Origin: a virus
Strand: one strand, 5' to 3'
Virus record (IMG/VR): IMGVR_UViG_3300029787_005452
Span: 64,001 to 128,000 of that record
Length of the DNA: 64,000 bases
Position 1 is the first letter of the stretch. Every line of letters begins with the position of its first letter. The notes beneath the pieces were generated by a model. The model was given only the letters and a program-made list of their open reading frames with translations. It did no database searches and was not told the origin of the DNA. Made by a program: the position numbers and the translations under genes. This document shows, piece by piece, positions 3,793 through 45,310 of this stretch.

Positions 3793-4446
3793 TTAATTAC
3801 CCCATGATGTACCGGCAAATGGATTACCAATACCTTTTGATGTTTTATTATATAAAGGTGGTGTTTGTGGGCCCTGATCTGCTATTGGTTCATTTTTAAC
3901 TTCATCATTAATAATAGCTGAAGCTTCTATTTCCTTTTCTTTTAGGTCATGCAAATTTTTTGCAGTATCTTCATTTTGAATATGGCCTTGATCTTTAATA
4001 GTATTCAATAATTCTTCATATATTGCACTATTACCTTCATGCTCCCAAACTTCTACTTTAATAATTCTAACACGATTATTAGTTTGCTCAGTTACAAATT
4101 TATTAGCATTTTCATATACCCATTCTGCAGTTCTTTCAATACCAACACCTTTTTCTGCAATGCGTAAATCAATCATACCCTTTTCAGACATTAACTTAAA
4201 TGTATCTAACTCTGGATCATCAGCAGCTACTACAGTTGTATGGTCATATTGCTTCTCTAAGAGATTTTTAATCTCTTTACAGCCACCGAAATCATAAATC
4301 CAATTTTTATCATCTAATTCTTCTGCTGTAAACCATAACTTACATTGTAATCTATAGCCATGAATTAATTTACAATGACTATCTGCTCTCCACTGACGAA
4401 AGGCTGTACTACCCATCGGTATAATTTTTGTTGATACATATCTCAT
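3793..4446 (-). CDS. queD: 6-carboxy-5,6,7,8-tetrahydropterin synthase (QueD/PTPS family) with C-terminal extension
   Basis: AFRQWRADSHCKLIHGY, DFGG, YDHTTVVAADDP, VEVWEHEGNSAIY. Confidence 0.88.
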   Translation of the reverse strand: MRYVSTKIIPMGSTAFRQWRADSHCKLIHGYRLQCKLWFTAEELDDKNWIYDFGGCKEIKNLLEKQYDHTTVVAADDPELDTFKLMSEKGMIDLRIAEKGVGIERTAEWVYENANKFVTEQTNNRVRIIKVEVWEHEGNSAIYEELLNTIKDQGHIQNEDTAKNLHDLKEKEIEASAIINDEVKNEPIADQGPQTPPLYNKTSKGIGNPFAGTSWGN

Positions 4447-10970: not shown

Positions 10971-11642
10971 TTATATTTTTTTATAGTGCCACTCATGGGG
11001 GTTTTCTTCCATTTCTTTTATACCATAACCTTTTATTGTGTTATAAAAGATAACAGTAGGTTTTTTATAATTTATTTTTTTAAAATTATTTTTAATTTCA
11101 TTATAATTATGACCATTAACAATGTGAACTTCCCAATTATAATTTCTAAACATATCTATTACTGGTTTAACATCTATAATATCATTTACATTACCGGTTA
11201 CCTGACTGTTATTATAATCGACTGTTACTAAAATATTTTTTATTTGTTTTTGGCCGATAAATTGTATACCTTCTAATTCACTACCCATTTGCAAAGCAGC
11301 ATCAGATAAATTAACCCAAGTAATTTTATCGCTAGCTAAAGATATACCAGCAGCAACCCCTAATGTATTTCCTAAAGATTCACCGGAAAAATTTACAAAA
11401 TCTATTTCTGAATGTTTTAAAATATTATGATATTCATTAATGTTTTTATCAAGATAACCTAGTTTTTTCCAAGGTATATAATATGCCTGGCTACCAAAAG
11501 GCTTACCTATAACAAAATTATGTTTATATGGTTTAATAAATTTTTCATTAAATAAACATTCTATATAAGTAGACATTGATAATGCAGATGGTATATGTTT
11601 AAAACCGTATTTTTTAGATTCATTATATATTTCATTAAACAT
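10971..11642 (-). CDS. Transketolase N-terminal TPP-binding subunit
   Basis: HIPSALS, SLGNTLGVAAG, LSDAALQMG, VDYNNSQ, VNGHN, TIKGYG. Confidence 0.82.
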   Translation of the reverse strand: MFNEIYNESKKYGFKHIPSALSMSTYIECLFNEKFIKPYKHNFVIGKPFGSQAYYIPWKKLGYLDKNINEYHNILKHSEIDFVNFSGESLGNTLGVAAGISLASDKITWVNLSDAALQMGSELEGIQFIGQKQIKNILVTVDYNNSQVTGNVNDIIDVKPVIDMFRNYNWEVHIVNGHNYNEIKNNFKKINYKKPTVIFYNTIKGYGIKEMEENPHEWHYKKI

Positions 11643-12751
11643 TATACTTTTATTTTTTTATGATTTAACATTAAATCACATCTACATCCATTACTGACTG
11701 GACATATAACACAATCATTAAATTTTTTATTTAATAAATCTAGTTCTTCGTTAGTACAATCGTGGGTAAATTTACCCTTTGGATCAATTCCCCATACTTT
11801 AGCAGTACATTTCCAACCTTTAAATCTATCTAACTTTAATGATCTTAAAAAAATTTCAGGTATATATACTGTGTTGTTATCTTTATCTTTTAATCTTATT
11901 TGTCTTTGTATATTATTTTCTAATAAATTAAAACCTTTATAATTTTTTGAATAGTTTATAATTTTTTTTAATATTTCGATAGTTTTATTAGTATCAGTTT
12001 TAAAATTAAAACCATTATAAGTAGATGTAGGGTGTAACAAATTTATATGAAATATTAAGTTATTTTTATTTAATTCTTCCATGAAACTAAATATTTTATC
12101 CCATTTTTCTTCTTCTGCCGGAAAATTTATATTTGTATAAAAATTACAATTTTTCATGTTGTGAAGTTCAATACATTTTTTTAAAAATATATCATTTTTA
12201 GCATATTCATTATGATAAGAACCACTAATATAAAGTTTATTGTATTTTTGATTATCAAATTTTTTATAAAATGAAGCAGGTTTTGTCAAATTAGTAACTA
12301 ATTCAACCCTTTTACATTTTTTATTTTTATTTAATTCCTCAATAATATTAAAAATTTTTGGATGAGTCGTTGGCTCTCCACCTAAAACCTCTACATTAAA
12401 ATTTGGAGTATTTCTTAATTTTAGTTTATTAAGTACAATTTTATAATGATTTAATAGAGAATTATCAAATTTATCTGTAAGTGTATCTTCCATATAACAG
12501 TAAGAACATCTATATTGACAAAAATAAGTTACTTCCCAACATAAATTTAACAATTCTCTATCTTTTTCATCTCCAGCTTCAATAAAATTATCTATAGATA
12601 AATTTTTATTTGTTTTTAAAAAATTTTCAAAACTATTAAAATTATTATACGCAAAACTATTAAAACTACCCTCATTGTATATTTTTCTTGTATTTGTCAA
12701 CATTGATATCGTTGGCGCGCTACTTAGGATTTTATTATCTGTGGTGTTCAT
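11642..12751 (-). CDS. Radical SAM protein with Cys-rich C-terminus
   Basis: WEVTYFCQYRCSYC, LGGEPTTHP, TNL; C-terminal CTAK...C...CPVSNGCRCD. Confidence 0.92.
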   Translation of the reverse strand: MNTTDNKILSSAPTISMLTNTRKIYNEGSFNSFAYNNFNSFENFLKTNKNLSIDNFIEAGDEKDRELLNLCWEVTYFCQYRCSYCYMEDTLTDKFDNSLLNHYKIVLNKLKLRNTPNFNVEVLGGEPTTHPKIFNIIEELNKNKKCKRVELVTNLTKPASFYKKFDNQKYNKLYISGSYHNEYAKNDIFLKKCIELHNMKNCNFYTNINFPAEEEKWDKIFSFMEELNKNNLIFHINLLHPTSTYNGFNFKTDTNKTIEILKKIINYSKNYKGFNLLENNIQRQIRLKDKDNNTVYIPEIFLRSLKLDRFKGWKCTAKVWGIDPKGKFTHDCTNEELDLLNKKFNDCVICPVSNGCRCDLMLNHKKIKV

Positions 12752-13259
12752 ATTTTTTTATTATTTTATTAATAATTCTTTTTATCTTATTTTCTTTTCT
12801 TATTAATTTTTGGCTACTACCATCAAAAGAAATATATATATTTTTTGAATCTCTATAAATTATATTTATATTTTTTGTTTTGAATATAAACTTACTACTA
12901 ATTTTACTAATATTGTTTTTATATATTTTAAAAGCTTTTATTAAACCGGAATTTCTATTTATTAAGTAAATTTTAAATGATAAAATTTTACCTATATGGT
13001 TTAGATCTATACCAACAAGAATATAGTTACTACCTATATCAAATAATCTATAGTAAAATATTAATTTATTTTTTTGTATACTAAAATGAAAATATTTTGT
13101 TTTATAAAAAAATTTTTGATAATTATAAAAATTTTTTTTATCTATATAATTTTTTATTAAATTATATTTAAAGTTATCTAAATTATAATATTCATATGAA
13201 TAATAAAAATTACCATTATCATAATCAATAGTGGTTGTATCTTGATATAAATCTATCAT
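12735..13259 (-). CDS. Hypothetical protein
   Basis: ORF overlaps both neighbours in operon fashion. Confidence 0.55.
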   Translation of the reverse strand: MIDLYQDTTTIDYDNGNFYYSYEYYNLDNFKYNLIKNYIDKKNFYNYQKFFYKTKYFHFSIQKNKLIFYYRLFDIGSNYILVGIDLNHIGKILSFKIYLINRNSGLIKAFKIYKNNISKISSKFIFKTKNINIIYRDSKNIYISFDGSSQKLIRKENKIKRIINKIIKKYEHHR

Positions 13260-13687
13260 ATATATTTTTGTATTATTTTATCTAGGTCCGAAAAACTATT
13301 AAAAATAATAGAATCCTTATTTAAATACCAAGTGATTAATGTTATATCATTGTGAAAAAAATCATTACCTTTTTTTCTATCATTTAGTATTTTTTCTAGA
13401 TTGTCTCTAGATAATTTATAATTACCAATTATTTTAAGTTGATATTTTTCGGCTTGAATAGGGTGATTAGTTAATAAAATTAATTCATCATTTAAATTTT
13501 TTATTCTATTTTTAAGAATATTATATTCTTTTTCTAAATGTTTTTCAAAATTACCATTTATAAAATGTTTTTTTAAAAAAATTTTTTCATTTTTTGTTAA
13601 TAAACTATCTATATCAATTAATTTTTTATATTTTTTACTTAGAGTAGTTTTACCGCAACCAGGAGATATTATTATAGTTTTTTTCAT
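13256..13687 (-). CDS. P-loop (nucleotide kinase-like) protein
   Basis: IIISPGCGKTTLSKK, IDID. Confidence 0.55.
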   Translation of the reverse strand: MKKTIIISPGCGKTTLSKKYKKLIDIDSLLTKNEKIFLKKHFINGNFEKHLEKEYNILKNRIKNLNDELILLTNHPIQAEKYQLKIIGNYKLSRDNLEKILNDRKKGNDFFHNDITLITWYLNKDSIIFNSFSDLDKIIQKYI

Positions 13688-14277
13688 TAAAAAATTAAAG
13701 TAGGTTTATCTGTAGATGGTATAACTAAATTCATATCAATAAAATTTAATTTATCGCTATCATAACAAAAAGAATTAACATTAACTTGGTTTATAAATAG
13801 ATTTTGTTTAGGTTCAATTATTTTACTATAATAAATACTACTTATTTCATGTTTTAATTTATTATATATGTTATTATAAATTTTTTTATTAGTGTTTAAT
13901 AACATATTTTGTAATATACATTTTTTAGTTAAGAAATAATTTATATCAGTTATATTTATTTCTTTAACAGACAATTCAAAAATAAAAATATTATTATGTC
14001 TAGAAATACATTTTGGAAAAAAATAATGCTTTAAATTGAAATAATTGTATATTTTTTTATAATATTCAAGTGATTTATATTTACCGAATATATTAAGTAA
14101 TTCTGGGTCTATTTTATCAATATAAAATATTAGATATAATTTTTTATTACTCTTTATTATATATGATAAAGACTTTTGATAATTACTATTTTTAAGATTA
14201 TCAATAATTTTTACTATTTTATAATTTTTATAAATTTTATGTGTAAAATTATATAATTCTTTATAAATTTTATCCAT
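13687..14277 (-). CDS. Hypothetical protein, possibly kinase-like
   Basis: Operonic ORF; weak similarity to a kinase C-lobe (NVNSF...LNFIDM). Confidence 0.5.
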   Translation of the reverse strand: MDKIYKELYNFTHKIYKNYKIVKIIDNLKNSNYQKSLSYIIKSNKKLYLIFYIDKIDPELLNIFGKYKSLEYYKKIYNYFNLKHYFFPKCISRHNNIFIFELSVKEINITDINYFLTKKCILQNMLLNTNKKIYNNIYNKLKHEISSIYYSKIIEPKQNLFINQVNVNSFCYDSDKLNFIDMNLVIPSTDKPTLIF

Positions 14278-15262
14278 CTATTGGTCTTTTAGGGTATTTA
14301 AACATTGAATTACATGTACAACCACCCTTTACAGGGCAAATAATTTCTTTACCGCAATTTCTAAATAAAGGGTCTAAAACTTCTCCTGAACAAACGTTTT
14401 TAAAAATTCCTAAATGATCAACATTCCATGACCAAGCAGGGCAATAAAATTTATTATAAAAATTATCTAAATGATTGCCTCTTATTTCTAATTCATTTAA
14501 ATAATGCTCTTTACCGCATTTTTCTACATATTTAATTTTGTCTTTAATACTATATTTTTCGTAAAAATCATTTAAACCAAATTTATCTAAAAAATTATAA
14601 ACTATATTCATTTGTTTTTTACTTTCTTCGATAGTATTTTTTGGTATATTACCCATATTAAAACCTTCATAATTTTTTGTACTTTGTAAAAGATTTAAAT
14701 CAAATACTATACCCTCATGAAGTAATTGTTTCATTAAATTAGCAGTTTGTTCGTGATATTTTTCTTCATTTATTATATTAACATTAACATAGAATTGTAA
14801 ATCATTTTTAAATAATTCTACACATTTATTTCCAAACTTTCCATCTTTATCGTATTGAGGGTGGTATGAAAACCCTCCATATATTCTTTTTTTTATATCT
14901 AAATCATTTATTTTTAAATAAAAATCAATTGGAGCGGTTAAATTGGTGTAATATATACTTTCATGTAATTTATCTAACTTTGATATTTCTTCAATTATAT
15001 CTAAAAAATTAGGATGTAAGGTAGGTTCCCCTCCTAATATTTCTAATTTAAATAATGGAGTATTTTTTAGTTTAAGTCTTTTTATTACCGTTTTCCACAT
15101 ATGGTAATAATTATTTTTTATATCAGATCTAATATAATCATAAGCATAGCAATACTTACACCTATAATTACATTTGTGCAATAAACTCCACCATATTTCT
15201 AAACATTCAAAATCTTCTTCCCCAGTAAATTTTACATTATTTAATTTAAGTTTAGAAGACAT
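14270..15262 (-). CDS. Radical SAM protein, paralog of 11642..12751
   Basis: CNYRCKYC, LGGEPTLHP, YTNL; C-terminal CPAW...C...CPVKGGCTCN. Confidence 0.92.
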   Translation of the reverse strand: MSSKLKLNNVKFTGEEDFECLEIWWSLLHKCNYRCKYCYAYDYIRSDIKNNYYHMWKTVIKRLKLKNTPLFKLEILGGEPTLHPNFLDIIEEISKLDKLHESIYYTNLTAPIDFYLKINDLDIKKRIYGGFSYHPQYDKDGKFGNKCVELFKNDLQFYVNVNIINEEKYHEQTANLMKQLLHEGIVFDLNLLQSTKNYEGFNMGNIPKNTIEESKKQMNIVYNFLDKFGLNDFYEKYSIKDKIKYVEKCGKEHYLNELEIRGNHLDNFYNKFYCPAWSWNVDHLGIFKNVCSGEVLDPLFRNCGKEIICPVKGGCTCNSMFKYPKRPIDG

Positions 15263-15267
15263 AATGT

Positions 15268-15275
15268 TATTTATA
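15268..15275 (-). promoter_or_regulatory. Late promoter TATAAATA-N5-ATG (radical SAM gene ending at 14270)
   Basis: Perfect consensus at conserved spacing. Confidence 0.7.
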
Positions 15276-15909
15276 AACTAATATTATCATTACCATCTGT
15301 TGTCTGTATATAACAACTATCTTTAATATAATTTATTTTACAATTTTTTAAACATTTTAAAAAAAATATTTCATCATTTTCGACATAATTATCATCTATT
15401 ATGTATTTGTTTATTAAATTATAGTTTATAATTTTTTTATCAAAAATTATTTGAGATAACTGAAAATCTATAAAATTATTATTAATAATAAAATCATTAT
15501 AGTATTTATATGGTTTTTTGCAGCATGATTTAACATATTCTTTCATAGAATTTTCATTTATATATTTGCGTATAAATTTTTTATCTTTTTCATATTCTAT
15601 AAAATTTAAATCATAATTTAAATCTATATTTTTAAAAAACTTAGGGGTTATATAATCATCATCTTCTAAAAAAAAGACTTTATTATAGTTAGATAAATTT
15701 ATTAACTTAAAATATAAATTTTTTAAAGTATCTTTAATATAAAAATACTTTATTTCCACGTTTTTATTGTAAATTTCTTCTATATCGTTACTATCATTAT
15801 TGACTATTATTTCTATATTGTTATTTTTACAGTTATCTATAACACTTTCAATACATCTTTTAAAAAGTTTAGGTCTTTTATGGGTTAAAATTAAAATTGA
15901 TAAATTCAT
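15271..15909 (-). CDS. GT2-family glycosyltransferase
   Basis: LSILILTHKRPKLFKRCIESV, FFLEDDD. Confidence 0.8.
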   Translation of the reverse strand: MNLSILILTHKRPKLFKRCIESVIDNCKNNNIEIIVNNDSNDIEEIYNKNVEIKYFYIKDTLKNLYFKLINLSNYNKVFFLEDDDYITPKFFKNIDLNYDLNFIEYEKDKKFIRKYINENSMKEYVKSCCKKPYKYYNDFIINNNFIDFQLSQIIFDKKIINYNLINKYIIDDNYVENDEIFFLKCLKNCKINYIKDSCYIQTTDGNDNISL

Positions 15910-16871
15910 ATTTTTTTCTTTAAAATATCAATAATTTTATCGTTTTTCTTTAATATTATACTATTAAAATCGTTTTCTATGTCTAATTTTCTATATTTTA
16001 AACCAGTATCTACGTTTAAATAGTTTTTATCAATATTATGGTATATAATATCTTTATTATAATACTTACATTCAGCTATAAATCTTGGACTGCAGTCAAA
16101 ACAACCTAATTCTTGTTTAGTTACCGAATATGTTGGGGTATATATGTAAGAATCAAACTTTTCAAATATATTATCCAAGGGCATAGCTGGAAAAGTTACA
16201 TTTTTTATATTTTTAAATTGTTCCCTATACAATTCTGGCTGATTAGTTAAAATTATATAATTTTTAAACTTATACTGCATAACTACATCAAGTAAATAAT
16301 TACTACACAGTTTTCTACAGTTTGTAGTTACATATAATAGTGCAGTTTCAGTTTTTACCTTTTTTATATCATTATAGATGTCAAACTTTATTTTTTTCTT
16401 ATAATCTATGGCTATTTCATTATCTTTATCATTATAAACCCTTTGATCTTGCAGTAAAGTTATATTTTTATAAGGTAAATTATAGTGAAAATCTTTATTT
16501 GAACATCTAAATGAAAATATATTATCAAAAGATATAACTATACCATCTCTTAATGAGGTTCTAGTAAACCCTCCATCGACAAATAATATATTTTTACCTG
16601 ATATAAACTTAGGTCGGTGATGAAAAATGGTATTATCTTTAATTTCATTAATTATATTATTTTTTATATTATATTTCGATATAATAGCTTTTTCTATTAT
16701 ATTCCAATCCATATCTTCGCATATTAATATACCAATTTTCATATGCTGGCTTAATAACAAGTAATATTCTAATATTTCATATAAATGACCAGATATTCCG
16801 TGATTATTATCATTATTCCATGTCATTGTTAAGAATAAATCATAACTTTTATCCAATTTTAAATATCTCAC
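15906..16871 (-). CDS. Putative glycosyltransferase-like protein
   Basis: GT-B-like C-terminal FDSYIYTP...SPRFIAECKYYNK; GTG start overlapping upstream stop. Confidence 0.45.
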   Translation of the reverse strand: MRYLKLDKSYDLFLTMTWNNDNNHGISGHLYEILEYYLLLSQHMKIGILICEDMDWNIIEKAIISKYNIKNNIINEIKDNTIFHHRPKFISGKNILFVDGGFTRTSLRDGIVISFDNIFSFRCSNKDFHYNLPYKNITLLQDQRVYNDKDNEIAIDYKKKIKFDIYNDIKKVKTETALLYVTTNCRKLCSNYLLDVVMQYKFKNYIILTNQPELYREQFKNIKNVTFPAMPLDNIFEKFDSYIYTPTYSVTKQELGCFDCSPRFIAECKYYNKDIIYHNIDKNYLNVDTGLKYRKLDIENDFNSIILKKNDKIIDILKKKI

Positions 16872-17896
16872 AAGTAAAAATCTTTCCTATAATGGTTAAC
16901 ATCACGTATTTTATCACCAGGTTCAGGATATACTTCCATATCTAATTGTTTTTCGATACCATCACAAATATAAAAATATTTGCACTTAAAACATGCTAAA
17001 GATTTTTTATAATCAGTGAGTCTATCATGTCTAGCTTTAGCATACCCTAATTCTATTTTTTGATTGTGTGTATATGTCTTAGTTACATCAATATCATAGT
17101 CATATATTTCTTTATTCCAGTCATATACATCATATACATGTTGATATTGGTTACATACATATTTTTCATAACCTTTCATAAAGCAATAAGGTGTGTATCT
17201 AACGTTAATATATTTTACATCGTCGACTATTAAATCTATACATTTTTTTATATTATCAGTTAGTTTATTATAGTCATCTATAGGTTCAAATGTTTTATTA
17301 TCATCCCAATAGTTTAAAGTTAAAAAGTTTACTTGAAAAGGTTTAATTTTTTTAATAATATCAGCATAAGCTACTAAACCTGAATAATTTTTTTGATAAA
17401 CTGTACAGTTAATTCTAACTCGTATGTTATGTTTGTTACAAAGGTCTATTGCTTTATTGATTTTCTTCCAACCATTCTTTCTCCCTACTATATCATCATG
17501 AACTTCTTCATTATAACCATGTAAACTAAATAAAATTTCTTTTAACCCGTGTTCTTTTGATTTTAATAAAAACTTTTCATTAGAAAATACTGAACCGTTA
17601 CTTAAACAGCTTATATTTTTAAATTTATCATTACAATAATCTAATATTTTAAACCAATCTTTATGTATGGAGCTTTCTCCTCCTGATAAATCTACTTCAT
17701 CTATACCATATGAGTGCAAAATATCTATACGCTTTTTAATAGTGTCGTATGACGTTTTCTGGTCTAATTTATCAAGATAATAACAAAATTCACAATGGTA
17801 ATTACAATGAAACCCGGTATCTAACTTTGCTCTATTATTTCTTTTAGTGGTATAATCAACATTAAATCTATTGATACTAATTTTATTAATATCCAT
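16868..17896 (-). CDS. Radical SAM protein with C-terminal CxxC-x4-C
   Basis: CNYHCEFCYY, LSGGE, SNG, CFKCKYFYICDGI. Confidence 0.92.
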   Translation of the reverse strand: MDINKISINRFNVDYTTKRNNRAKLDTGFHCNYHCEFCYYLDKLDQKTSYDTIKKRIDILHSYGIDEVDLSGGESSIHKDWFKILDYCNDKFKNISCLSNGSVFSNEKFLLKSKEHGLKEILFSLHGYNEEVHDDIVGRKNGWKKINKAIDLCNKHNIRVRINCTVYQKNYSGLVAYADIIKKIKPFQVNFLTLNYWDDNKTFEPIDDYNKLTDNIKKCIDLIVDDVKYINVRYTPYCFMKGYEKYVCNQYQHVYDVYDWNKEIYDYDIDVTKTYTHNQKIELGYAKARHDRLTDYKKSLACFKCKYFYICDGIEKQLDMEVYPEPGDKIRDVNHYRKDFYL

Positions 17897-31951: not shown

Positions 31952-33160
31952 ATGCTAATACAAGGTAACAGACCATTCCAACAAGGTAACCCGTTTCAAC
32001 CGATGCAAAATCAACCGATACAGTTTCAGCAGCCGGCACCACCTCCGCAACCAAAAGAAAATGAATTACCGCGATTTTTAAATTATTATGCAGATTATTC
32101 TGGTTGCGGTCATTGGAGAATGATATGGCCTGAACAGATTATGAACGCTCATAGTAAAGCTTGTGTACACGGGACAACAGTGATGAATTTAGATGAGCGA
32201 TATTATGTTCAAACGAAAGGTGTTCGTATTCAAAGACAAGCTACTCCTCAGCAATTACAATTTGTAAAGTGGTTAAGACAATTAGCAGATAAAAATAATT
32301 TTAGATTAATTTATGAAATTGATGATATATGTTTTTCTGAAGATATACCAGACTATAACAAATATAAAACGGCATTTACCGACCCTACTATTAGACAATC
32401 AGCTCAAGAAATGATGTCTATATGCGATGAAATTACTGTTACATGCCCGTTTATGAGAGATTATTATAGAGATAAAACTGGTAATAAAAATGTTACAGTT
32501 GTACCAAATTTTATGCCAAAGTTTTGGATTGACAGATTCTATGATAATTCTAGATCAATGGAAAGCTATGATCGTAATAAAAGAAAACCGAGAATTTTAT
32601 ATGCAGGCTCCGGAGCTCATTTTGATGTTGAACAAAGAGTTAAATTTAAAGATGATTTCCACCATGTTAATGATGTTATAAGAAAAACAGTTGATAAGTT
32701 TCAATGGGTGTTTTTAGGGGCTCACCCTTTACCGTTGATAGATTTAGTTCGGTCTGGTAAAGTAGAATTCCATCCATGGAAAAAACTATATGAATACGGT
32801 AAAGGTTTATATGATTTAAATGTTAATATGTTAGTTGCGCCTTTACAAGATAATATTTTTAACCGTTCGAAATCAGATTTAAAATATATAGAATCTTGTG
32901 CATTAGGATTACCCATTGCTTGTCAAGATATGTGTACATATGAAAACGCTCCTATAAAATTTAAAACCGGAGATGAAATGATTAATCAAATAGAGCACAC
33001 TCTGCAAGATAGAAAACGTTATAAAGCTCTTTGCAGAAAAGGTCGTCAATATGCCGATACAAGGTGGTTGGAAGATGATAAAAATATTGATTGTTATTTA
33101 GAATTATATCAATATGGAGTTAATGACTCAAAAAGGGTTAATTTATCTAGATATAATTAG
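31952..33160 (+). CDS. GT-B glycosyltransferase
   Basis: GCGHWRMIWP, YEIDD, LVAPLQDNIFNRSKSDLKYIE. Confidence 0.85.
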   Translation: MLIQGNRPFQQGNPFQPMQNQPIQFQQPAPPPQPKENELPRFLNYYADYSGCGHWRMIWPEQIMNAHSKACVHGTTVMNLDERYYVQTKGVRIQRQATPQQLQFVKWLRQLADKNNFRLIYEIDDICFSEDIPDYNKYKTAFTDPTIRQSAQEMMSICDEITVTCPFMRDYYRDKTGNKNVTVVPNFMPKFWIDRFYDNSRSMESYDRNKRKPRILYAGSGAHFDVEQRVKFKDDFHHVNDVIRKTVDKFQWVFLGAHPLPLIDLVRSGKVEFHPWKKLYEYGKGLYDLNVNMLVAPLQDNIFNRSKSDLKYIESCALGLPIACQDMCTYENAPIKFKTGDEMINQIEHTLQDRKRYKALCRKGRQYADTRWLEDDKNIDCYLELYQYGVNDSKRVNLSRYN

Positions 33161-36452: not shown

Positions 36453-37553
36453 ATGAGTAAAGAAATTGATGATATTTTATCTGTAATTGATAAATCTAAT
36501 CCTTATGCATCTTTCTTAAACGAAAGTGCTATTAGTAATGTAGATGGTTGGTTAGATACTGGATCGATGGTACTAAATGGTATCGTATCAGGTTCATTAT
36601 TTGGTGGTATACCTAAAAATAGAATGACCTTATTAGCTGGTCCAAGTATGACGGGTAAGAGTTTTATATTACAGAAAATATTAGCTAATGCTCAAAAGGA
36701 AGGTTTAATACCAGTTATATTTGATAGTGAAAATGCTATTGATAGAGATGGTGCTGCTGCTTTGGGGTTAGATGTTAGTAAAGTAAAATATGTACCTGTA
36801 TTTAGTATTGAAGAATGTCGTAATACTATTTTTGACTTCTTAACTAAAGTGAAAGAAAATGGTCAAGAAGGTAAATTTATTATAGCTATTGATTCATTAG
36901 GTAATATGGAAAGTCAATTACAAATTAATCGCCAGACTAAGGGTAATGTAAGTGCTGATATGGGTAGTAGAGCTAAAGCTATGAAATCTTTATTACGTAC
37001 CTTAACCCAGTTATCAGGGTTAACCAAAACTACTATTTTAGCCACTAATCATATATATGAAGATCCAGCTGCATTATTTCCTTCTTTAGTTAAAGCAATG
37101 CCTGGTGGTACCGCTACCGTTTACCTACCTTCAGTAACTATTCAGTTGGCTCGTAAACCTGTTAAAGAAGATAAAAATACCGATGGTAAGTTAGCCGTAG
37201 GTCAGAAAAATTATTCAGGAGTTATTCTGAGAGCGTTAACTGTAAAGAATAGATTTGTTAAGCAATACTTGCAAGGTGAAATGTATCTATCATTCGATAA
37301 AGGTCTAAACAAGTATTATGGTTTATTAGATCTTGCAGTAGGTTTAGGTGCAGTTATACAAACAGGATCTACTTATACGTTACCAGATGGTAAAAAACTT
37401 GGATATTATAGTAAGTGGAAAGATGATACGGAACTTTGGGATAATACTATTATACCGGTAGTTGAAGAAAAAATTAAGCAAGAATGGAAATATAGTAATA
37501 AGTCATATGAAGAAGAAATTATACCAGACGAAGTAAATGATGAAGAAGACTAA
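36453..37553 (+). CDS. uvsX: RecA-like recombinase UvsX
   Basis: LDTGS, AGPSMTGKS, FDSE, IDSLGN, NHIY, VKNRF. Confidence 0.93.
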   Translation: MSKEIDDILSVIDKSNPYASFLNESAISNVDGWLDTGSMVLNGIVSGSLFGGIPKNRMTLLAGPSMTGKSFILQKILANAQKEGLIPVIFDSENAIDRDGAAALGLDVSKVKYVPVFSIEECRNTIFDFLTKVKENGQEGKFIIAIDSLGNMESQLQINRQTKGNVSADMGSRAKAMKSLLRTLTQLSGLTKTTILATNHIYEDPAALFPSLVKAMPGGTATVYLPSVTIQLARKPVKEDKNTDGKLAVGQKNYSGVILRALTVKNRFVKQYLQGEMYLSFDKGLNKYYGLLDLAVGLGAVIQTGSTYTLPDGKKLGYYSKWKDDTELWDNTIIPVVEEKIKQEWKYSNKSYEEEIIPDEVNDEED

Positions 37554-38286
37554 AATAGTAATAACATTATCAGGCGGTATGGATTCGTCTGTACTATTAT
37601 ATAAAGCAGCTAAACAATATAAAGAAGTTCATACTGTAACGTTCGATTACGGTCAAAGACATGATTTAGAGTTGCAAGCAGCAGAAAGACAATTAGTTAA
37701 TGTTAAGCATGATTTTCCTAATGTATTATTTACTAATAAATTATTAGATGTAAAATATATTAAGGATATAGCTGATACATCTTCTTTAACTAATGATAAT
37801 ATTGATACACCCGACGTAAAAGATGTAATGGGCGAAGCTCAACCTAAGTCATATGTACCTTTTCGTAACATGATGTTTTTAAGTATCTTACTATCGTATG
37901 CTGAAAAATTAAAAGCTGAAGAAGTATGGTATGGTGCTGCTGAAGCAGATAGTTTAGCAGGTTACTGGGATGGTTCAGTACAATTTGTAGATAAAATGAA
38001 TCAAATATGTTTGTTAAATAGGGAAATTGATGTAAGTGTTAGAGCCCCTCTTCTAGAAATGAGTAAAAAAGATATTATTTTACATGGAGTTGAATTAGGA
38101 GTTAATTTTGGTGATACTTATACTTGTTATTCCGGAGAATATCCGTGTGATGCAAATAGTGCAAGCAGTGCATTAAGATTAAAGGGGTTTGTAGATGCGG
38201 GTTTACGAGACCCGTTACCTTATAAACAGCAAGACAAATTAGATTCAGTTTATAGGGATAATAACTGTAAGTCTATTATAGCCTAA
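37537..38286 (+). CDS. queC: 7-cyano-7-deazaguanine (preQ0) synthase with degenerate Zn site
   Basis: LSGGMDS, FDYGQRH, YVPFRNMMFLS, YWDGS, APLL, TYTCY; CGxCxxC replaced by CDANSASS. Confidence 0.9.
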   Translation: MMKKTKIVITLSGGMDSSVLLYKAAKQYKEVHTVTFDYGQRHDLELQAAERQLVNVKHDFPNVLFTNKLLDVKYIKDIADTSSLTNDNIDTPDVKDVMGEAQPKSYVPFRNMMFLSILLSYAEKLKAEEVWYGAAEADSLAGYWDGSVQFVDKMNQICLLNREIDVSVRAPLLEMSKKDIILHGVELGVNFGDTYTCYSGEYPCDANSASSALRLKGFVDAGLRDPLPYKQQDKLDSVYRDNNCKSIIA

Positions 38287-38299
38287 TAAAAATACCTTA

Positions 38300-39667
38300 C
38301 TAGCTACCCGTAGCTGCTGCTTTTGCAAGCTTTAAATATTTTCTATAAGCAGTAGCGTCTTTACCACTTAACCTATTAATAGCTGATCTAGTCATATTTG
38401 CAAATTTTCTACCAAGCATATCTTGACCTCTTTCAGCAGCACCTTGTACAGTTCTAGCACTTGGCATTGTATCTTTTATATCTTTTATACGTTGAGCTTG
38501 GTCAGCAGCCATTTGTGTTGTTTGTTTAACTGCATCAGCATTAGCTGCTACCTCTTTAGCTGCTGAAGCAGCTTGTAATTTATTCGTTATAGCTCCAGTT
38601 ACTCCACCAGCAACACCACCAGCAGCTGCGCCTGCTAATCCTTTGGTTAATGCCCCTTTACCGGCTGCTTTTGCAACTGCTTTAAATCTATCCTTTCCTG
38701 TCAATTCACCTTTAGTATCTTTCATACCTTTAATCGTACCGGTTACAGCTCCAGTTGCTGCACCAATACCACCGCCTTTTAATGCACCGGCTAAAATCAT
38801 TGGTGCAACTGCTGGCGCTGCCGCGGCTACTACACCTAGAATTGCTAAAGCACCAACTGATGTTTTTATTGGATTTGCTTTTACATAATTATATGCTTTC
38901 TTAATAAACCCACCAACGTCAACGGTTTTGCTACCTAAACCGGTTTTGAACCCATCCCCTTGTTGTGGTTGAGCAGGTGCTTGTTGTGGTTGCGCCCCAC
39001 CTTGTTGTGGTTGAGCAGGTGCTTGTTGAGCTGCAGCAAAATTTTGTGCAATACTCTTACTAGGATCATAATTTACAATTTTAGCTTTATCTGGATTTTT
39101 TTGAAAGTATTGTGCTACACCACCAGCTTGACGATATGCATTTCTAAATTCATCTCTATTTTTAAAACCTAAACTTTTAGCATAACTAGCCTCGCTATCT
39201 TCATCATTATATTTTTCTATAATTAAATTTGCTTTATCTTCTGATACAATACCTTCATTAAATACAATTTGTGAAAATATATAATGATTGGTATAATATT
39301 CATTACTTTCATTTGTTGTACTAATACCTTGTTGAATTTTTTGTTGCTCTTGTTTACCTTGAGCTAAAATAGCATCCATTGCAGCTTTATCACCTTGTGC
39401 TGCTTGAAGTTTCTTTAAGGTTTCAGGGTCATTTTTAGATAAAAACTGTATTGCTTTATTAATTATAGGTTGTAATAATTTTTTAGTTGCAAAATCTTTA
39501 ACCCCTTTACCAGCAGCGGCCGCTTTTTGTTTAAATTTATCAAAAAGACCTTCTTTAATAAGAAATTTTTCAAATTCAACTAGATCAGCTTCTAATAAAG
39601 ATTCTAGATCATTATTATGTATTTTTTTAAAATAATTTTCAAAAATTAATTCAGTATCTTTATTCAT
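38300..39667 (-). CDS. Late hypothetical protein with Gln-rich repeat and long Gly/Ala hydrophobic segments
   Basis: TAAATA-N5-ATG; MNKDTELIFENY; VGALAILGVVAAAAPAVAPMILAGALKGGGIGAATGAVTG. Confidence 0.7.
   Translation of the reverse strand: MNKDTELIFENYFKKIHNNDLESLLEADLVEFEKFLIKEGLFDKFKQKAAAAGKGVKDFATKKLLQPIINKAIQFLSKNDPETLKKLQAAQGDKAAMDAILAQGKQEQQKIQQGISTTNESNEYYTNHYIFSQIVFNEGIVSEDKANLIIEKYNDEDSEASYAKSLGFKNRDEFRNAYRQAGGVAQYFQKNPDKAKIVNYDPSKSIAQNFAAAQQAPAQPQQGGAQPQQAPAQPQQGDGFKTGLGSKTVDVGGFIKKAYNYVKANPIKTSVGALAILGVVAAAAPAVAPMILAGALKGGGIGAATGAVTGTIKGMKDTKGELTGKDRFKAVAKAAGKGALTKGLAGAAAGGVAGGVTGAITNKLQAASAAKEVAANADAVKQTTQMAADQAQRIKDIKDTMPSARTVQGAAERGQDMLGRKFANMTRSAINRLSGKDATAYRKYLKLAKAAATGS
38958..39028. 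repeat. 29-bp direct repeat, two copies 42 bp apart (encodes QQAPAQPQQG)
   Basis: ccttgttgtggttgagcaggtgcttgttg at 38958 and 39000. Confidence 0.85.
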
Positions 39668-39675
39668 AATATTAT

Positions 39676-40902
39676 TTAATACCCGTGTCTATAATTTCTT
39701 TCGTGGGTATGAGCATTTTGCATTCTTTGTCTGTACTGATTAAGCAGGTAATTATTTATTTCTTGTTGAGACATTGCAACTTGCTCTTCTTCTTCTGATT
39801 CTGATTTTTTTCTAAGCTTACCTGTAACTGGGCATCTTTCTGCATCTTCAGCAGGTTCGTCTTCATCCTCATAATGATCAGCAACTGCTCTTGCATGAGC
39901 TTGACCAGCTCTTTCTTGCTCTTTCTTCATAGCGTTATCAATAGCCTCTTTTCTTGCTTTTCCATATTCTTTAATTTCACCATCATCATCTAAATCTTTA
40001 TCTAAAGGATGAACTTGTTTTGGATCATTTTCCTCATCACTCATTGGGCAGTCTTCAGCATCTTCATCATCATCATCTCCGAAAGCTGCTTTAGCACGAG
40101 CATGTTCATATTCAGAAACTTTACCATCTTTATCAAGATCAGCTTTCTTATAATCTATTTCATCTTCAGGAGCTACACCAAACTGATCTCTTTGACTCAT
40201 ATGCATAACAGCGTTTATTGCATTTGACATACCATCTTCCTCACCTTCAGGAAAATCAGCAACTAATTTTTCTCTATCACCCATTTCAATTTCACCACCA
40301 AATTTATCAACTTTTTCCGTTTCACTAGGTTTGACAATAACAACCGATACTACATCATCTTGGGATATATCGTCTAAATTAATTTTAGTACCTTTAAAAG
40401 TATTAAGTGTAACTCTATACTTTAAACCATCACTCACGACTGTATAAAGATCATTATCACCGACACCGCCCTCAGATTTTAATGTTGTATCATCACCTAA
40501 ATTTAATTGTAACGTCTCAAAACCAGTATCACCTTTCTTGAGACCTTCTTTAGCAGCCCCTCTTTCTCTTGTTGTAATTTTTACATCTGATCTACCTGCT
40601 AAAGGTTTAGAAACTTGTGAGACTACATTTATTGCATTTTGAATATCATCATTTGATAAATTTTCTAAGTCTAATTCAGGGTTTTCTTTTTGTAAAAATC
40701 TAATTACTTTAGTTGCAAAATATCTAGGTGTCATTGTACCTTTTAAATCCCGGATATCTTCCATTCCCATTAGTTTAGCTCTAATAGGGTCCACAATTTT
40801 TTTACCCCTAGCTTCTTCAACGATATCAAAATCTTCATTATCCATGTAACTTGATGTATTTTCAGTTATTATTTTTCTATTTGACCAGTTATTTAAACTC
40901 AT
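39676..40902 (-). CDS. Acidic late hypothetical protein with two DxDxDG motifs
   Basis: DLDKDGKVSEYE and DLDDDGEIKEYG; TAAATA-N5-ATG. Confidence 0.7.
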   Translation of the reverse strand: MSLNNWSNRKIITENTSSYMDNEDFDIVEEARGKKIVDPIRAKLMGMEDIRDLKGTMTPRYFATKVIRFLQKENPELDLENLSNDDIQNAINVVSQVSKPLAGRSDVKITTRERGAAKEGLKKGDTGFETLQLNLGDDTTLKSEGGVGDNDLYTVVSDGLKYRVTLNTFKGTKINLDDISQDDVVSVVIVKPSETEKVDKFGGEIEMGDREKLVADFPEGEEDGMSNAINAVMHMSQRDQFGVAPEDEIDYKKADLDKDGKVSEYEHARAKAAFGDDDDEDAEDCPMSDEENDPKQVHPLDKDLDDDGEIKEYGKARKEAIDNAMKKEQERAGQAHARAVADHYEDEDEPAEDAERCPVTGKLRKKSESEEEEQVAMSQQEINNYLLNQYRQRMQNAHTHERNYRHGY

Positions 40903-40913
40903 ATTATTATTTA

Positions 40914-40941
40914 TTGATTTTTTTTAATTTTATACTATAAT
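40914..40941 (+). promoter_or_regulatory. Early promoter TTGATT-N16-TATAAT ahead of the GATase operon
   Basis: Read directly; back-to-back with late TAAATA (minus, 40908-13). Confidence 0.65.
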
Positions 40942-40949
40942 ATAGATAT

Positions 40950-41621
40950 ATGTGTGGTATTTACTGTAGTAATGATTTAACTTCTTTTGAAGTCTTACAA
41001 CAAGCTAATAAAGAAAGGGGTAACTTTTCCTCAGGTATATTTTATTGTTATAATAAAGCAAATTATAATATAGTCAAAGAAAAAGGTAATATAGACTGGG
41101 AAAAAACTGTATTACCTAGTGAAAAAGGACATTTATATCTTGGCCATAATCAGGCCCCGACGGAAACCGGTAGGGACTGGGAAGAAGAAACATCTCACCC
41201 GTTCTGGATCGGGGATTGGATAGTAGCTCATAACGGTGTATTAACAAATTTTAATGAATTAATCGATGAATATGTACCTATGCATGATAACCCTGTTGAT
41301 AGTAGTATAATACCAGCATTATTGGATGAATTCGAATATACGCACGGTCCTTGTGAGGATGCTGAAACTGAAGTACAGAATATTTTATACACTATAGAAA
41401 AACTTAAAGGTACTTTTGCTCTTTGGATAGTAAACATAAAAACGATGAATGTTTATATAGCAAGACAAGGTAGTACGTTGTTTTATAAAGACGCTAATAT
41501 ATCATCAATTAAAGGTCAAGGTTATAAAGAAGTATTACAGGGTGTGCTTTATAACTTTTCATATGAAGGTCTAACAGAGTTAGATGGATTCGTATATGAC
41601 TCACCATTTTTAACATTATGA
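40950..41621 (+). CDS. Class II (Ntn) glutamine amidotransferase
   Basis: N-terminal MCG, GHNQAPT, HPF, VAHNGVLTN, VDS. Confidence 0.85.
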   Translation: MCGIYCSNDLTSFEVLQQANKERGNFSSGIFYCYNKANYNIVKEKGNIDWEKTVLPSEKGHLYLGHNQAPTETGRDWEEETSHPFWIGDWIVAHNGVLTNFNELIDEYVPMHDNPVDSSIIPALLDEFEYTHGPCEDAETEVQNILYTIEKLKGTFALWIVNIKTMNVYIARQGSTLFYKDANISSIKGQGYKEVLQGVLYNFSYEGLTELDGFVYDSPFLTL

Positions 41622-42094
41622 ATATAAATTACGTTACAATTAATGAATTAACTGAAATAGATAAGTTAAGATTTATAAAATTTATCTATGATAATACTAA
41701 TTCTTTTATTTTAAATACTTTTGGACATACTTGGTCAGGTAGAGACTGGTGGTCAAAGTATCCGATTGAAGTATGTGTTGATGATGAAGGTAAAGTACTA
41801 GGTTTACATGCATATACAGTGAATGATAAATTTGAAGATACTTTAAAGACTTATTATATAGTAACTTCTAAAGGTAGTAGAGGTAAAGGTATTGCTAAAA
41901 TATTAATAAAAAATGCTATCTATAAAAATAAAGATAAAATAAATTTTTATTATGTTAATTCAGATACAAAAAGCGAAGGGGCTATTTTTTATAAAAAATG
42001 GTTAGGTGAAAATTTTACTCTTGAAGATAATGATTTTAATTCCCAAGATATAATCTTTAAGGAACCTATTTATAATATAATAGATGAAGTATAG
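41618..42094 (+). CDS. GNAT-family acetyltransferase
   Basis: IVTSKGSRGKGIAKILI (motif A), AIFYKKWLG. Confidence 0.75.
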   Translation: MNINYVTINELTEIDKLRFIKFIYDNTNSFILNTFGHTWSGRDWWSKYPIEVCVDDEGKVLGLHAYTVNDKFEDTLKTYYIVTSKGSRGKGIAKILIKNAIYKNKDKINFYYVNSDTKSEGAIFYKKWLGENFTLEDNDFNSQDIIFKEPIYNIIDEV

Positions 42095-42431
42095 CAAACA
42101 ACTTAAAAAAACCGGTAAACCTCGTCAATTTGAAACTGGTGCCCAAAGAGATAATGCAGATAATAAGTTACGTATGAGTTTAGTACCTCATAAAGCTTTA
42201 AATGACGTAATGGTTAGATATCTGCAAGGTGCAGATGCTTACGGAGAAAATAATTGGAAGAAAGGTATGAAGCATTCAGTCTTATATGATAGTACTATGA
42301 GACATTTAATGCAAGATTTTACAGGTGATAATACAGAAGATCATTTAGGAGCAGCTTTATGGAATATTATGGGTATGATTTGGAATAGAGATAATAAACC
42401 AGAAATGGATGATAGAAAAGATTATAAATGA
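42084..42431 (+). CDS. dATP/dGTP diphosphohydrolase-domain protein (DUF5664)
   Basis: FETGAQRD, LVP, GADAYGENNWKKGM, RHL, EDHLGAALWN. Confidence 0.8.
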   Translation: MKYSKQLKKTGKPRQFETGAQRDNADNKLRMSLVPHKALNDVMVRYLQGADAYGENNWKKGMKHSVLYDSTMRHLMQDFTGDNTEDHLGAALWNIMGMIWNRDNKPEMDDRKDYK

Positions 42432-43084
42432 AATGCAAAATATATACAGCTACAAAAGGGTTAAAAGAAGATACGTTACTATATAAATCCCTTAATATAA
42501 AATATTACGATATACCAGTACATTATGAAGAAAAAAATACTAAAAGTTTGCAAAGCTGTTATAACAGCTTTTTGGAGGACGCTCGTAATAATAACGTTGA
42601 TATCTGCGTATTTGTTCATGATGACGTTTTTATTAATTGCAGGGATTTGTTGCATAGGTTGGACGATTATGGAAAAATGTATACAGTTTTTGGTCTCGCA
42701 GGGGCTAGCACATGCAAGGTTAAAGAACCTGCTTTATGGCATCTTATGTCCGAAAGAAAAGACCAAAGAGGAAATGTTGCTCACGGACATCCTGTCCAAT
42801 ATCAGTATACTTCGTTTGGTCCTATTCCAGGTCGTGTTTTGGTTATTGATGGGGTCTTTATCGGTATTAATATACGAAATTTACCAACTAATGTAAAATT
42901 TGATGAGTCTTACCCGTCTAAGTTTCATTACTATGATTTAGATTTTAGTCTGGAATGCAATAAAAATAGTGTTAAAATAGGTGTAGTGGATATACCAATA
43001 ATACATTCAAGTCCAGGGTTAACTAACCCTACCAAAGAATTCTATGAAGGTCAAAAATATTTTATAAACAAATGGAAGAAGTAG
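42428..43084 (+). CDS. GT-A glycosyltransferase
   Basis: SLQSCYN, VFVHDDV, VIDGVFIG, FHYYDLDFSL. Confidence 0.82.
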   Translation: MKCKIYTATKGLKEDTLLYKSLNIKYYDIPVHYEEKNTKSLQSCYNSFLEDARNNNVDICVFVHDDVFINCRDLLHRLDDYGKMYTVFGLAGASTCKVKEPALWHLMSERKDQRGNVAHGHPVQYQYTSFGPIPGRVLVIDGVFIGINIRNLPTNVKFDESYPSKFHYYDLDFSLECNKNSVKIGVVDIPIIHSSPGLTNPTKEFYEGQKYFINKWKK

Positions 43085-44412
43085 GAAGATTAAATTTAGA
43101 TTATTATGAGCAGGTTATAATTTATAAGAGTTTAACTAATGAAAGTTATTTAACTCAAATTATAGAACACGTAAAACCTGAATATTTTAATGATAAAAAT
43201 ATTAAGACTGTATTTAGTTTAATAACTAATTTCTATATTAAGAGGCAGAGTATACCTACTATTACTGAATTAAAATCATACTTAATTAATGATGAACTTA
43301 AGGAAAGTTTTAGATCAGTTGTAAAGAATTTTCCTAATATTGATAAGAATTTTAATGATGAAGAATTAACTTCTAATACTGAACGTTTCTTAAAAGAAAG
43401 GGCAATTTATAATACAATGTTATCTGTTGCTGAGGATGTCAGTAAAGGTGAAGTAAACACGAGTTTTATTTTAGATAGTTTCGAAAAAAGTTGTAATGTT
43501 AATTTAAAGGAAGATATAGGTTTAGATTTATTTGAAAATATTGATAAAGTCGTAGAAGATCTAAATATAGATCAACCTACTATACCTTCAGGTTGGAAAT
43601 GGTTAGATGATAAAATAGATGGAGGTTTCTTAGAAAATGGTAGGTCGTTATATGTATTTGCTGGTGAATCAAACGTCGGTAAATCTATATTTTTAGGTAA
43701 TATAGCCTGTAATATAGCCTCTAAAGGTAAGACAGTTTTAGTTATAAGTCTTGAAATGTCAGAGATGATATATGCAAGAAGATTATCATCTAATATAACT
43801 AGAATACCGATGAAAGAGTTAAAAGGAGCTGGTCAATCTTTATCAGCTCAAATAAAAAGTTACAATAATGGTAAACCTAATAGTAAAATTTTAATTAAAG
43901 AGTTTCCTCCTAGTACTGTTACACCGCAGAATATACAAGGTTATATTACTGAACTAAAAAATAGAGGTATTAAAGTAGATGCAGTAGTTCTTGATTATTT
44001 AAATCTATTAAAAAGTCCTCTCGGTGATAATTCTTATGAAAGGGTAAAGCATGTTGCTGAAGGTATACGAGCATTGAGTTATGTTTTTGAATGTCCGTTT
44101 ATTTCTGCTACTCAGTTAAATAGATCTGGTTATGATGAAGAGAATCCTGGTTTAGATACTATATCTGAATCTATTGGAATGGCTGCTACTGCTGACTGTA
44201 TCTTTAGTATATTTCAAGATGATGAAGATAAGGAGTTAGGTATAGTTAAAATGGGTATGATGAAAAATAGATATGGTGCTAATTATGGTTATACCGCATT
44301 AAGGTTAAATTACGATACGTTGACTATTTCAGAAGATGAAACGTTAAACGTTGATGATGAAGGTAGCGAGATGTCTGATTTAACTAATACTCTTAACTTG
44401 TTGAGTAATTAA
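43072..44412 (+). CDS. gp41: Replicative DnaB-like helicase
   Basis: AGESNVGKS, SLEMSE, LDYLNL, SATQLNR, ISESIG, KNRYG. Confidence 0.95.
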   Translation: MEEVGRLNLDYYEQVIIYKSLTNESYLTQIIEHVKPEYFNDKNIKTVFSLITNFYIKRQSIPTITELKSYLINDELKESFRSVVKNFPNIDKNFNDEELTSNTERFLKERAIYNTMLSVAEDVSKGEVNTSFILDSFEKSCNVNLKEDIGLDLFENIDKVVEDLNIDQPTIPSGWKWLDDKIDGGFLENGRSLYVFAGESNVGKSIFLGNIACNIASKGKTVLVISLEMSEMIYARRLSSNITRIPMKELKGAGQSLSAQIKSYNNGKPNSKILIKEFPPSTVTPQNIQGYITELKNRGIKVDAVVLDYLNLLKSPLGDNSYERVKHVAEGIRALSYVFECPFISATQLNRSGYDEENPGLDTISESIGMAATADCIFSIFQDDEDKELGIVKMGMMKNRYGANYGYTALRLNYDTLTISEDETLNVDDEGSEMSDLTNTLNLLSN

Positions 44413-44434: not shown

Positions 44435-45310
44435 ATGCCTAAGATCCATATAATTACAGATGCAGATCTCGATGGAGCTGGTTCATACCTTTGTTTAAAG
44501 CAAGCATATAAAGATACTACATTAACATATTCAGTAACTACAGAAAAAAAGTTTATTAATGATATAGCATACTTTAAATTTGAAGATTACGATCTAGTAA
44601 TTATTAGTGATTTAAATTTAAAAGAAAGTGAAATTAGACTATGTGATCTTAAAAATGTAATTGTAATAGACCATCATGCTGAACATATGCAGCTAATAGA
44701 TAATTATAAAAATGCAAAACCTATAATAAAAGATTATACATCTTGTACAAAATTAATATATGATACTTTTAAGTTAGAAAATAAGTTAAATAAAAATCAA
44801 AAATTATTGGTCAAATTAGTTGATGATTATGACAGTTATACTCTAAATTTACCATTTAGTAAACCATTAAATCAAGTATTTTGGTCTTATACTGGTGATA
44901 GAGTTAGTAAATTTGAAAATGATTTTAAAAATGGTTTCTTTGGTTTTAATCAGTTTCAAAAAAATGCTTTAAAAATTATAGAAAATAAAATTGAAAGGTT
45001 TTTTAAAGAAGAAACGATACATAGAGGTAACTTAAAAATAGGCGACAAAAATTATGACGTTGCAGGGGTTGTGGTAACTTTTAGTCCTAATGAAATAGCA
45101 GAGCGAATAATTAATAATTATGGGGTAGATTTTGTAATAATGGTCAACCTTGCTGGTAAAAGTGTTTATATGAGACGTAGTGAGTGTTGCTCTTTAAATA
45201 TGGGTAAAATAGCTGCAAAATTGATGAACGGTGGAGGTCATGCAGATGCTGCTGGGGGAACTTTAAATGATACGGTCATTAATATTACTAAATTACTTAA
45301 TAAAATTTAA
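44435..45310 (+). CDS. DHH/DHHA1 phosphoesterase
   Basis: DADLDG, SDL, IDHH, GGGHADAAG. Confidence 0.88.
   Translation: MPKIHIITDADLDGAGSYLCLKQAYKDTTLTYSVTTEKKFINDIAYFKFEDYDLVIISDLNLKESEIRLCDLKNVIVIDHHAEHMQLIDNYKNAKPIIKDYTSCTKLIYDTFKLENKLNKNQKLLVKLVDDYDSYTLNLPFSKPLNQVFWSYTGDRVSKFENDFKNGFFGFNQFQKNALKIIENKIERFFKEETIHRGNLKIGDKNYDVAGVVVTFSPNEIAERIINNYGVDFVIMVNLAGKSVYMRRSECCSLNMGKIAAKLMNGGGHADAAGGTLNDTVINITKLLNKI

Follow-up and report, generated by a model that had tools for sequence, protein, structure and literature searches.

What does a phage make with an operon that strings a glutamine amidotransferase, an acyltransferase, a DUF5664 protein and a glycosyltransferase onto its replicative helicase? 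The question is raised by a 64,000-nt stretch of DNA (the window), bases 64001-128000 of the 185,197-bp IMG/VR virus record IMGVR_UViG_3300029787_005452, which is about 88% complete and has a GC content near 28%. Five plus-strand open reading frames (ORFs) overlap successively by 4, 11, 4 and 13 nt. They encode a class-II glutamine amidotransferase (GAT, 40950-41621; GATase_6/7 and PHROG matches), a GNAT acyltransferase (41618-42094; Acetyltransf_1), a 115-aa DUF5664 protein (42084-42431; PF18909, 3e-19), a GT-A glycosyltransferase (GT, 42428-43084; PF13712 Glyco_tranf_2_5, 6e-11) and a DnaB/gp41-like replicative helicase (43072-44412; PF03796 DnaB_C; phrog_19, 3.5e-80). The source is a deep-branching uncultured marine T4-like phage that encodes the gp23 capsid protein, UvsX, gp32 and a gp41-like helicase; its gp23 reaches at best 34% identity, to cyanophages. 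We propose, with a probability of roughly 55%, that the operon forms the tailoring arm of a system of the DpdA3 type, which replaces guanine in DNA by a 7-deazaguanine, and that the GNAT would acylate preQ1. Plain positions refer to the window and those prefixed G000 to the whole virus record; L-numbered loci (for example L015 or L144) are contig loci, mostly of other phages.

The window holds four genes of 7-deazaguanine synthesis: FolE2 GTP cyclohydrolase (5677-6729, plus strand; PF02649, 1e-72), QueD of the PTPS family (3793-4446, minus strand; PF01242, 8e-19; phrog_2389, 8e-36), a QueE-like radical S-adenosylmethionine (SAM) enzyme, the 7-carboxy-7-deazaguanine (CDG) synthase (1935-2675, minus strand; phrog_2076, 2e-43), and the 7-cyano-7-deazaguanine synthase QueC (37537-38286, plus strand; PF06508, 7e-52; TIGR00364). 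The initial annotation had placed the operon in a 7-deazaguanine pathway, a reading supported below, and had not considered DpdA3 and QueF elsewhere in the genome. Both lie outside the window in a DpdA3 operon, where a bimodular QueF (G000:21314-22288), an AAA_28 kinase and, adjoining the kinase, a DpdA3 transglycosylase homologue (G000:22771-23577; phmmer 1.2e-15 to CGPG_00065) span G000:21314-23577.

This DpdA3 is 29% identical to CGPG_00065 of Cellulophaga phage phiST, 49% to a protein of Campylobacter phage CP220 and 51% to the protein annotated as DNA guanine transglycosylase in Flavobacterium phage immuto_2-6A, with which QueF and the kinase share 46% and 33% identity. A Pfam TGT search of the genome returned no DpdA match, as expected for the distant DpdA3 subfamily, and the CP21 region around queE held no DpdA3. 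A 361-aa ORF between queD and folE2 (4558-5643, minus strand) was considered as a DpdA and rejected: it is K/E-rich, of low complexity and without a match in Pfam, PHROGs or phage records. By sequence comparison, the DpdA3 here is a member of the subfamily linked to complete G replacement. Such replacement is described for DpdA3 phages (dDG, fdPreQ1, dADG), and the DNA of immuto_2-6A carries formyl-dPreQ1 (fdPreQ1), with DpdN as the predicted preQ1 formyltransferase (PMC10516641). Complete replacement is expected from the likeness to immuto_2-6A, and in the DNA of the present phage a preQ1-type 7-deazaguanine should accordingly stand in for every guanine.

The evidence for the tailoring step comes from an exchange of genes. 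The immuto_2-6A operon runs DpdA3-small ORF-DpdN-kinase-QueF. In the present genome it reads DpdA3-kinase-QueF, with no DpdN, and the same arrangement, also without DpdN, is found in about 50 IMG/VR loci of the close clade whose sequence continues beyond DpdA3; about 20 more distant IMG/VR loci retain DpdN. A search of the genome for an orthologue of immuto DpdN (YP_010114479) found only a PF00551 gene of 22% identity. This gene encodes the formyltransferase of a sugar-nucleotide island, and we rejected it as a DpdN on account of that identity and of its neighbours, which are epimerases, a deacetylase and glycosyltransferases. Two sister contigs, L015 and L019, carry a PF00551 protein of 177-178 aa in the GNAT position, between GAT and DUF5664, and its gene begins at the same overlapping junction as the GNAT gene. 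The L015 protein is 42% identical to immuto DpdN over the full length (E 2e-44), which falls within the range among DpdA3-linked DpdNs, compared with about 28% over 64 residues to the sugar-island formyltransferase of the present genome. The slot proteins of both contigs are read as DpdN orthologues. In one DpdA3 operon, DpdA3 and DpdN are separated by a GIY-YIG homing endonuclease (L109:5853-6602).

The GNAT scores 26.8 against Acetyltransf_1 (cut-off 20.7), and in its acetyl-CoA motif, R88-x-x-G91-x-A93, R88 and G91 never vary and A93 hardly does. Its family is small and distinct, with 46 proteins found among 1.84 billion representatives by profile search, and tblastn against phage records gave no match. 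Members of this family occur beside deazaguanine genes in unrelated phages. For example, L136-L138, from a phage whose replication module is of the PolIII-alpha/DnaG type, encode a fusion of AAA_28 kinase and GNAT; its gene lies immediately before QueF, and QueD, a phosphoribosyltransferase (PRTase), dUTPase, FolE and QueE follow. The fused kinase is 34% identical to that of the present DpdA3 operon. In L144 the order is GAT-QueC-endonuclease-QueE-DpdA3-GNAT-kinase, with a DpdA3 49% identical to ours and the GNAT exactly in the DpdN slot. L139 has DpdA3 (50% identical)-ORF-GNAT-glyoxalase-like-kinase, and L142/L143, from a PolA-type phage, have kinase-GNAT near a QueE-like gene. The GT is absent from all of these contexts. 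The contigs of two further family members, P0214 and P0215, are too short for gene context. The DpdA3 homologue of L144 (L144:3474-4295) consists of two ORFs in one frame with an in-frame stop, which may be an error, a pseudogene or recoding.

Because the GNAT exchanges with DpdN in one slot and recurs independently by DpdA3, kinase and QueF, it is most likely an N-acyltransferase that acts on preQ1 at the aminomethyl group, from which acetyl-dPreQ1 is predicted, and we infer that it is a non-homologous replacement of DpdN. An acetylated preQ1 derivative, one of the products suggested in the initial annotation, is thereby the best prediction. The phage probably makes an undescribed acetylated DNA base, 7-(acetylamino)methyl-7-deazaguanine; our literature search found no paper that pairs dPreQ1 with acetyl. 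A comparable enzyme is gp48 of phage PaMx11, a GNAT that acetylates 5-aminomethyl-dU in DNA (PMC8989533). Both reactions, the second as proposed here, place an acetyl on the aminomethyl group of a modified DNA base, but the PaMx11 substrate is a pyrimidine in the 5-hydroxymethyl-dU pathway.

In the proposed mechanism, FolE2, QueD, QueE and QueC would make preQ0, which QueF would reduce to preQ1, as judged by homology. The GAT would provide QueC with ammonia to build the nitrile and perhaps some amidine. The GNAT, filling the job that the DpdN formyltransferase has in immuto-like phages, would acylate, and most likely acetylate, preQ1 at its 7-aminomethyl nitrogen, whether the substrate is the base, a nucleotide or a residue in DNA, and virion DNA would hold 7-(acetylamino)methyl-7-deazaguanine instead of G. 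The DUF5664 protein would serve the deazaguanine pathway, possibly acting on (d)GTP. The GT would transfer a sugar; DNA as its acceptor is not part of the proposal. Compared with immuto_2-6A, the enzyme set and the DpdA3-...-kinase-QueF order are the same. The phage here differs in being without DpdN and having its GNAT in a separate operon with the GAT, in using FolE2 instead of FolE, in its stand-alone GAT and extra GT-A enzyme, and in carrying DUF5664 where immuto has a PRA-PH-type hydrolase.

Megablast of the whole operon against phage records found no close relative. In a gene-neighbourhood survey, 25 IMG/VR loci (GAT 65-92% identical) share the order UvsX-QueC-[variable reverse gene]-GAT-GNAT-DUF5664-GT-DnaB-DHH-gp32, and several other relatives at 45-50% identity have it too. 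One lineage of relatives has no DUF5664 in the operon.

Several points weigh against the proposal. The evidence is comparative throughout. In more distant marine relatives, GAT and GT overlap directly, with neither GNAT nor DUF5664; on this comparison the family core is QueC...GAT-GT-DnaB and the other two genes are add-ons. Since the GAT-GT operon of these relatives contains neither GNAT nor DpdN, the GNAT is dispensable for the family. The missing part of the record could hold a DpdN. Compared directly with the Gat domains of Gat-QueC, the GAT shows weak similarity (24.5% identity, E 4e-4). Amino-sugar pathways, too, typically alternate between N-acetyl and N-formyl groups, and in relatives the GT has sugar-nucleotide genes beside it. 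Finally, the function of DpdN is itself a prediction in the source paper (PMC10516641).

The DUF5664 protein had been read as a dGTP/dATP diphosphohydrolase. What stands of this reading is the PF18909 match and the recurrence in DpdA3 operons, where a 48%-identical homologue sits inside a DpdA3-DpdN-...-kinase-QueF operon (L118/L119). The catalytic assignment has lost ground: PF18909, the only domain matched, is the N-terminal, non-catalytic domain of MazZ-2-type long diphosphohydrolases, and neither the catalytic PF04447 nor MazG (PF03819) was matched in the protein or the genome. In actinophages, proteins with PF18909 alone are common. A search against PDB sequences gave no match, and the model has a predicted local distance difference test (pLDDT) score of 69. 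Foldseek gave no significant match (MazG-like chains appear in its weak rows), and the top VIA match, 2p06 (Z 7.2, root-mean-square deviation 4.3, 77 aligned), is not significant. The protein resembles the MazZ/DUF550 (d)GTP diphosphohydrolases of Z-genome phages (PMC8342488) in that PF18909 is named after their N-terminal part and in the setting of a base-replacing phage, but differs from them in that the phage here has no PF04447 domain and no genomic MazG.

One alternative is a replacement of G through the nucleotide pool. A nucleoside-triphosphate-pyrophosphatase-like protein would convert dGTP to dGMP, as MazZ of S-2L does, the base would be exchanged or built on the nucleotide by DpdA3 or the purine PRTase, the AAA_28 kinase would rephosphorylate the product, and acylation would precede polymerisation, with the GT maybe adding a variable sugar. 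Under the same scheme the first step would fall to DUF5664 here, to the PRA-PH protein in immuto, to MazG in phiST and to the dUTPase-like protein in L136. Kinase, purine PRTase and pyrophosphatase-like genes do recur with DpdA3: a PRA-PH-type hydrolase lies beside it in immuto-like phages and MazG in phiST, and a xanthine/guanine-type purine PRTase (G000:3423-3887, plus strand, in L031) is common to the present phage, immuto (gp211), phiST (CGPG_00045) and the L136 deazaguanine cluster. The presence of DpdA3 speaks for a base exchange on DNA, which it fits at least as well as a nucleotide-level route, and we regard the pool scheme as possible, though tentative. In one DpdA3 operon an inorganic pyrophosphatase lies between kinase and QueF (L123:7256-7771). 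The 116-118-aa ORFs of L121 and L123 were considered as MazG-like and rejected, as they have no Pfam match.

A second alternative turns on the GT. Its H64-D65-D66 (DxD) motif is invariant, its model has a pLDDT of 94 and its nearest structure is majastridin 2qgi (E 8e-12, TM-score 0.74). It shares the GT-A fold and DxD motif with majastridin (PDB 2qgi/2nxv) and other GT-A enzymes; identity to majastridin is 16%. The T4 DNA glucosyltransferases, in contrast, have a GT-B fold. Since different sugar-nucleotide genes are inserted beside the GT in relatives (Gmd with a GDP-fucose-synthase-like epimerase; a cytidylyltransferase-like gene; a phosphomannose isomerase (PMI) cupin), the sequences and the model make it very likely a true sugar transferase with a varying donor.

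The GT could then add a sugar to the deazaguanine in DNA, giving a base both acylated and glycosylated, with a donor that varies between relatives. This is consistent with its fold and invariant motif, with the sugar-nucleotide genes beside it and with its translational coupling to the operon and helicase in every family member, including those with GAT-GT pairs. However, N-acyl-preQ1 has no obvious hydroxyl acceptor, and the GT is missing from all other GNAT, DpdN and DpdA3 contexts; tblastn against 50,697 phage records, including cultured DpdA3 phages, gave no match. The genome has other glycan islands, and the GT may serve virion or host glycans. What ties it to deazaguanine is synteny inside one phage family, and the glycosylated base suggested in the initial annotation has become doubtful. 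T4-style glycosylation of 5-hydroxymethylcytosine (hmC) or 5-hydroxymethyluracil was also considered and rejected, as a search for a thymidylate-synthase-like hydroxymethylase (PF00303, PF02511) gave no match at E<=1 in the ~88%-complete record. ThyA and ThyX are accordingly without a match in the record; in two relatives, L054 and the P0075 contig, ThyX lies downstream of gp32.

The operon might instead belong to an amino-sugar or glycan pathway, in which the GAT would aminate a sugar like GlmS, the GNAT or a formyltransferase would N-acylate it and the GT would transfer it to a virion or host glycan. The best curated matches of the GAT are indeed the N-terminal domains of GlmS and PurF, N-acetyl and N-formyl groups are known to alternate on amino sugars, sugar-nucleotide genes flank the GT in relatives, and a large sugar island is found elsewhere in the genome. 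Against this, the slot protein of L015 is closer to DpdN than to the sugar-island formyltransferase (42% vs about 28% over 64 residues), GNAT relatives adjoin DpdA3, kinase and QueF where no GT is present, and the GAT abuts QueC in two unrelated phages. We therefore consider an amino-sugar product unlikely. The island itself lies outside the window on the minus strand (G000:42159-50252; L033:2159-10252) and contains two NAD epimerase/dehydratases, a UDP-glucose-dehydrogenase-like ORF, a 230-aa formyltransferase, a PIG-L deacetylase, and GT7C-like and GT47-like transferases.

The GAT starts with Met-Cys, and all of 18 compared sequences share C2, R23, R75, N95, G96 and D117; the roles of such Cys, Arg, Asn-Gly and Asp residues of the glutamine site are known from GlmS and PurF. 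The score against Pfam GATase_6 is 26.4, just below the cut-off of 27, and PDB sequences gave only weak GlmS rows. The family phrog_10428, which covers fused forms, matches the GAT through its N-terminal and QueC through its C-terminal part; here the two are unfused, their genes separated by 2.66 kb. In Vibrio jumbo phage 2.275.O (L040) a stand-alone GAT follows QueC and QueF is also present, and in L144 the GAT directly precedes QueC. A complex of QueC and GAT is weakly predicted, with a score of 0.44 vs 0.00 for the best control, contact agreement of at least 61% and partner pLDDT of at least 87. Of 80 solved complexes, 58 reached the mark applied to such predictions, as did 2 of 110 mismatched pairs, but only 7 of the 80 scored 0.60 or under.

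The GAT is best read, from these comparisons, as the glutaminase half of a split enzyme of the Gat-QueC type and as a partner of QueC, in keeping with the link that the initial annotation had drawn. Like the Gat-QueC of phage 9g and Crenarchaeota, it would pair an N-terminal-Cys class-II amidotransferase with a QueC-type PP-loop ATPase; the differences are the two genes 2.7 kb apart, the presence of QueF and an output that is likely preQ0/preQ1, not G+. Because QueF and DpdN or GNAT need preQ0/preQ1, we consider preQ0, made with glutamine, a likelier main product of GAT and QueC than archaeosine. The suggestion that GAT and QueC make archaeosine (dG+) as the final base, as Gat-QueC does in phage 9g (PMC6884629), with GNAT, DUF5664 and GT as unrelated accessories, agrees with phrog_10428 covering both halves and with the weakly favourable complex prediction, but is highly improbable given the bimodular QueF encoded next to DpdA3, the DpdN of sister phages, which needs preQ1, and the QueF that accompanies the stand-alone GAT in the Vibrio phage.

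QueC itself scores 158.6 bits against TIGR00364, above the curated cut-off of 150.3. Canonical QueC has a four-Cys zinc site near the C-terminus. In the family studied here this Cys cluster is partly replaced, the consensus retaining C197 and one nearby Cys, followed by D/N/S/S. All family members keep only two Cys in the zinc-site region, and this, along with the use of FolE2, hints that the pathway may spare zinc.

The layout around the operon agrees with the initial description of five overlapping, helicase-coupled ORFs behind one promoter, in coordinates, in families and in conserved hexamers. A hexamer scan of the 47-bp gap before the GAT found a sigma-70-like site, TTGATT-16-TATAAT (40914-40941, plus strand). 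In this AT-rich DNA, sites of the TTGATT/TATAAT type show no enrichment (60 observed vs 52 expected). Both hexamers and the upstream ATTATTTA are retained in marine and freshwater relatives and the spacer drifts; since the hexamers are kept across relatives while the spacer varies, the site is likely a real promoter. Downstream of the helicase lies a DHH/DHHA1 phosphoesterase (44435-45310, plus strand; Pfam/PHROG scan).

Upstream, queC overlaps the gene of the UvsX recombinase (36453-37553, plus strand; PF00154; phrog_97). The queC gene had been placed about 2.7 kb before the GAT with two opposite-strand genes between, which the measured 2.66 kb and two reverse ORFs confirm. One of them (38300-39667, minus strand) encodes 455 aa, has no Pfam or PHROG match and is matched by tblastn only in L020 and L022. 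The other (39676-40902, minus strand) encodes 408 aa, is also without Pfam or PHROG match and evolves fast, with 29-78% identity in relatives; it is possibly a fibre or adhesin. In the L051 relative, the reverse gene of the QueC-GAT interval encodes 852 aa and matches Laminin_G_3. Elsewhere in the window, three radical SAM enzymes are encoded in a long co-directional ORF run with a GC content of 18-24% (11642-17896, minus strand), and a 402-aa ORF without a Pfam match lies between gp46-like SbcC and DNA polymerase (31952-33160, plus strand), a position at which L052 and L054 have an ORF of similar size.

The known 7-deazaguanine bases of DNA number eight; an acetylated form, if real, would be the ninth, with the GNAT family as its named candidate enzyme family. 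To judge from the exchange of GNAT and DpdN, phages vary the acyl group that caps preQ1 much as T-even phages vary the sugars on hmC, which would bear on restriction evasion and on the enzymes that recognise modified DNA. With DpdA3 linked to kinase, purine PRTase and pyrophosphatase-like genes, how every G in such a genome is replaced becomes a testable question.

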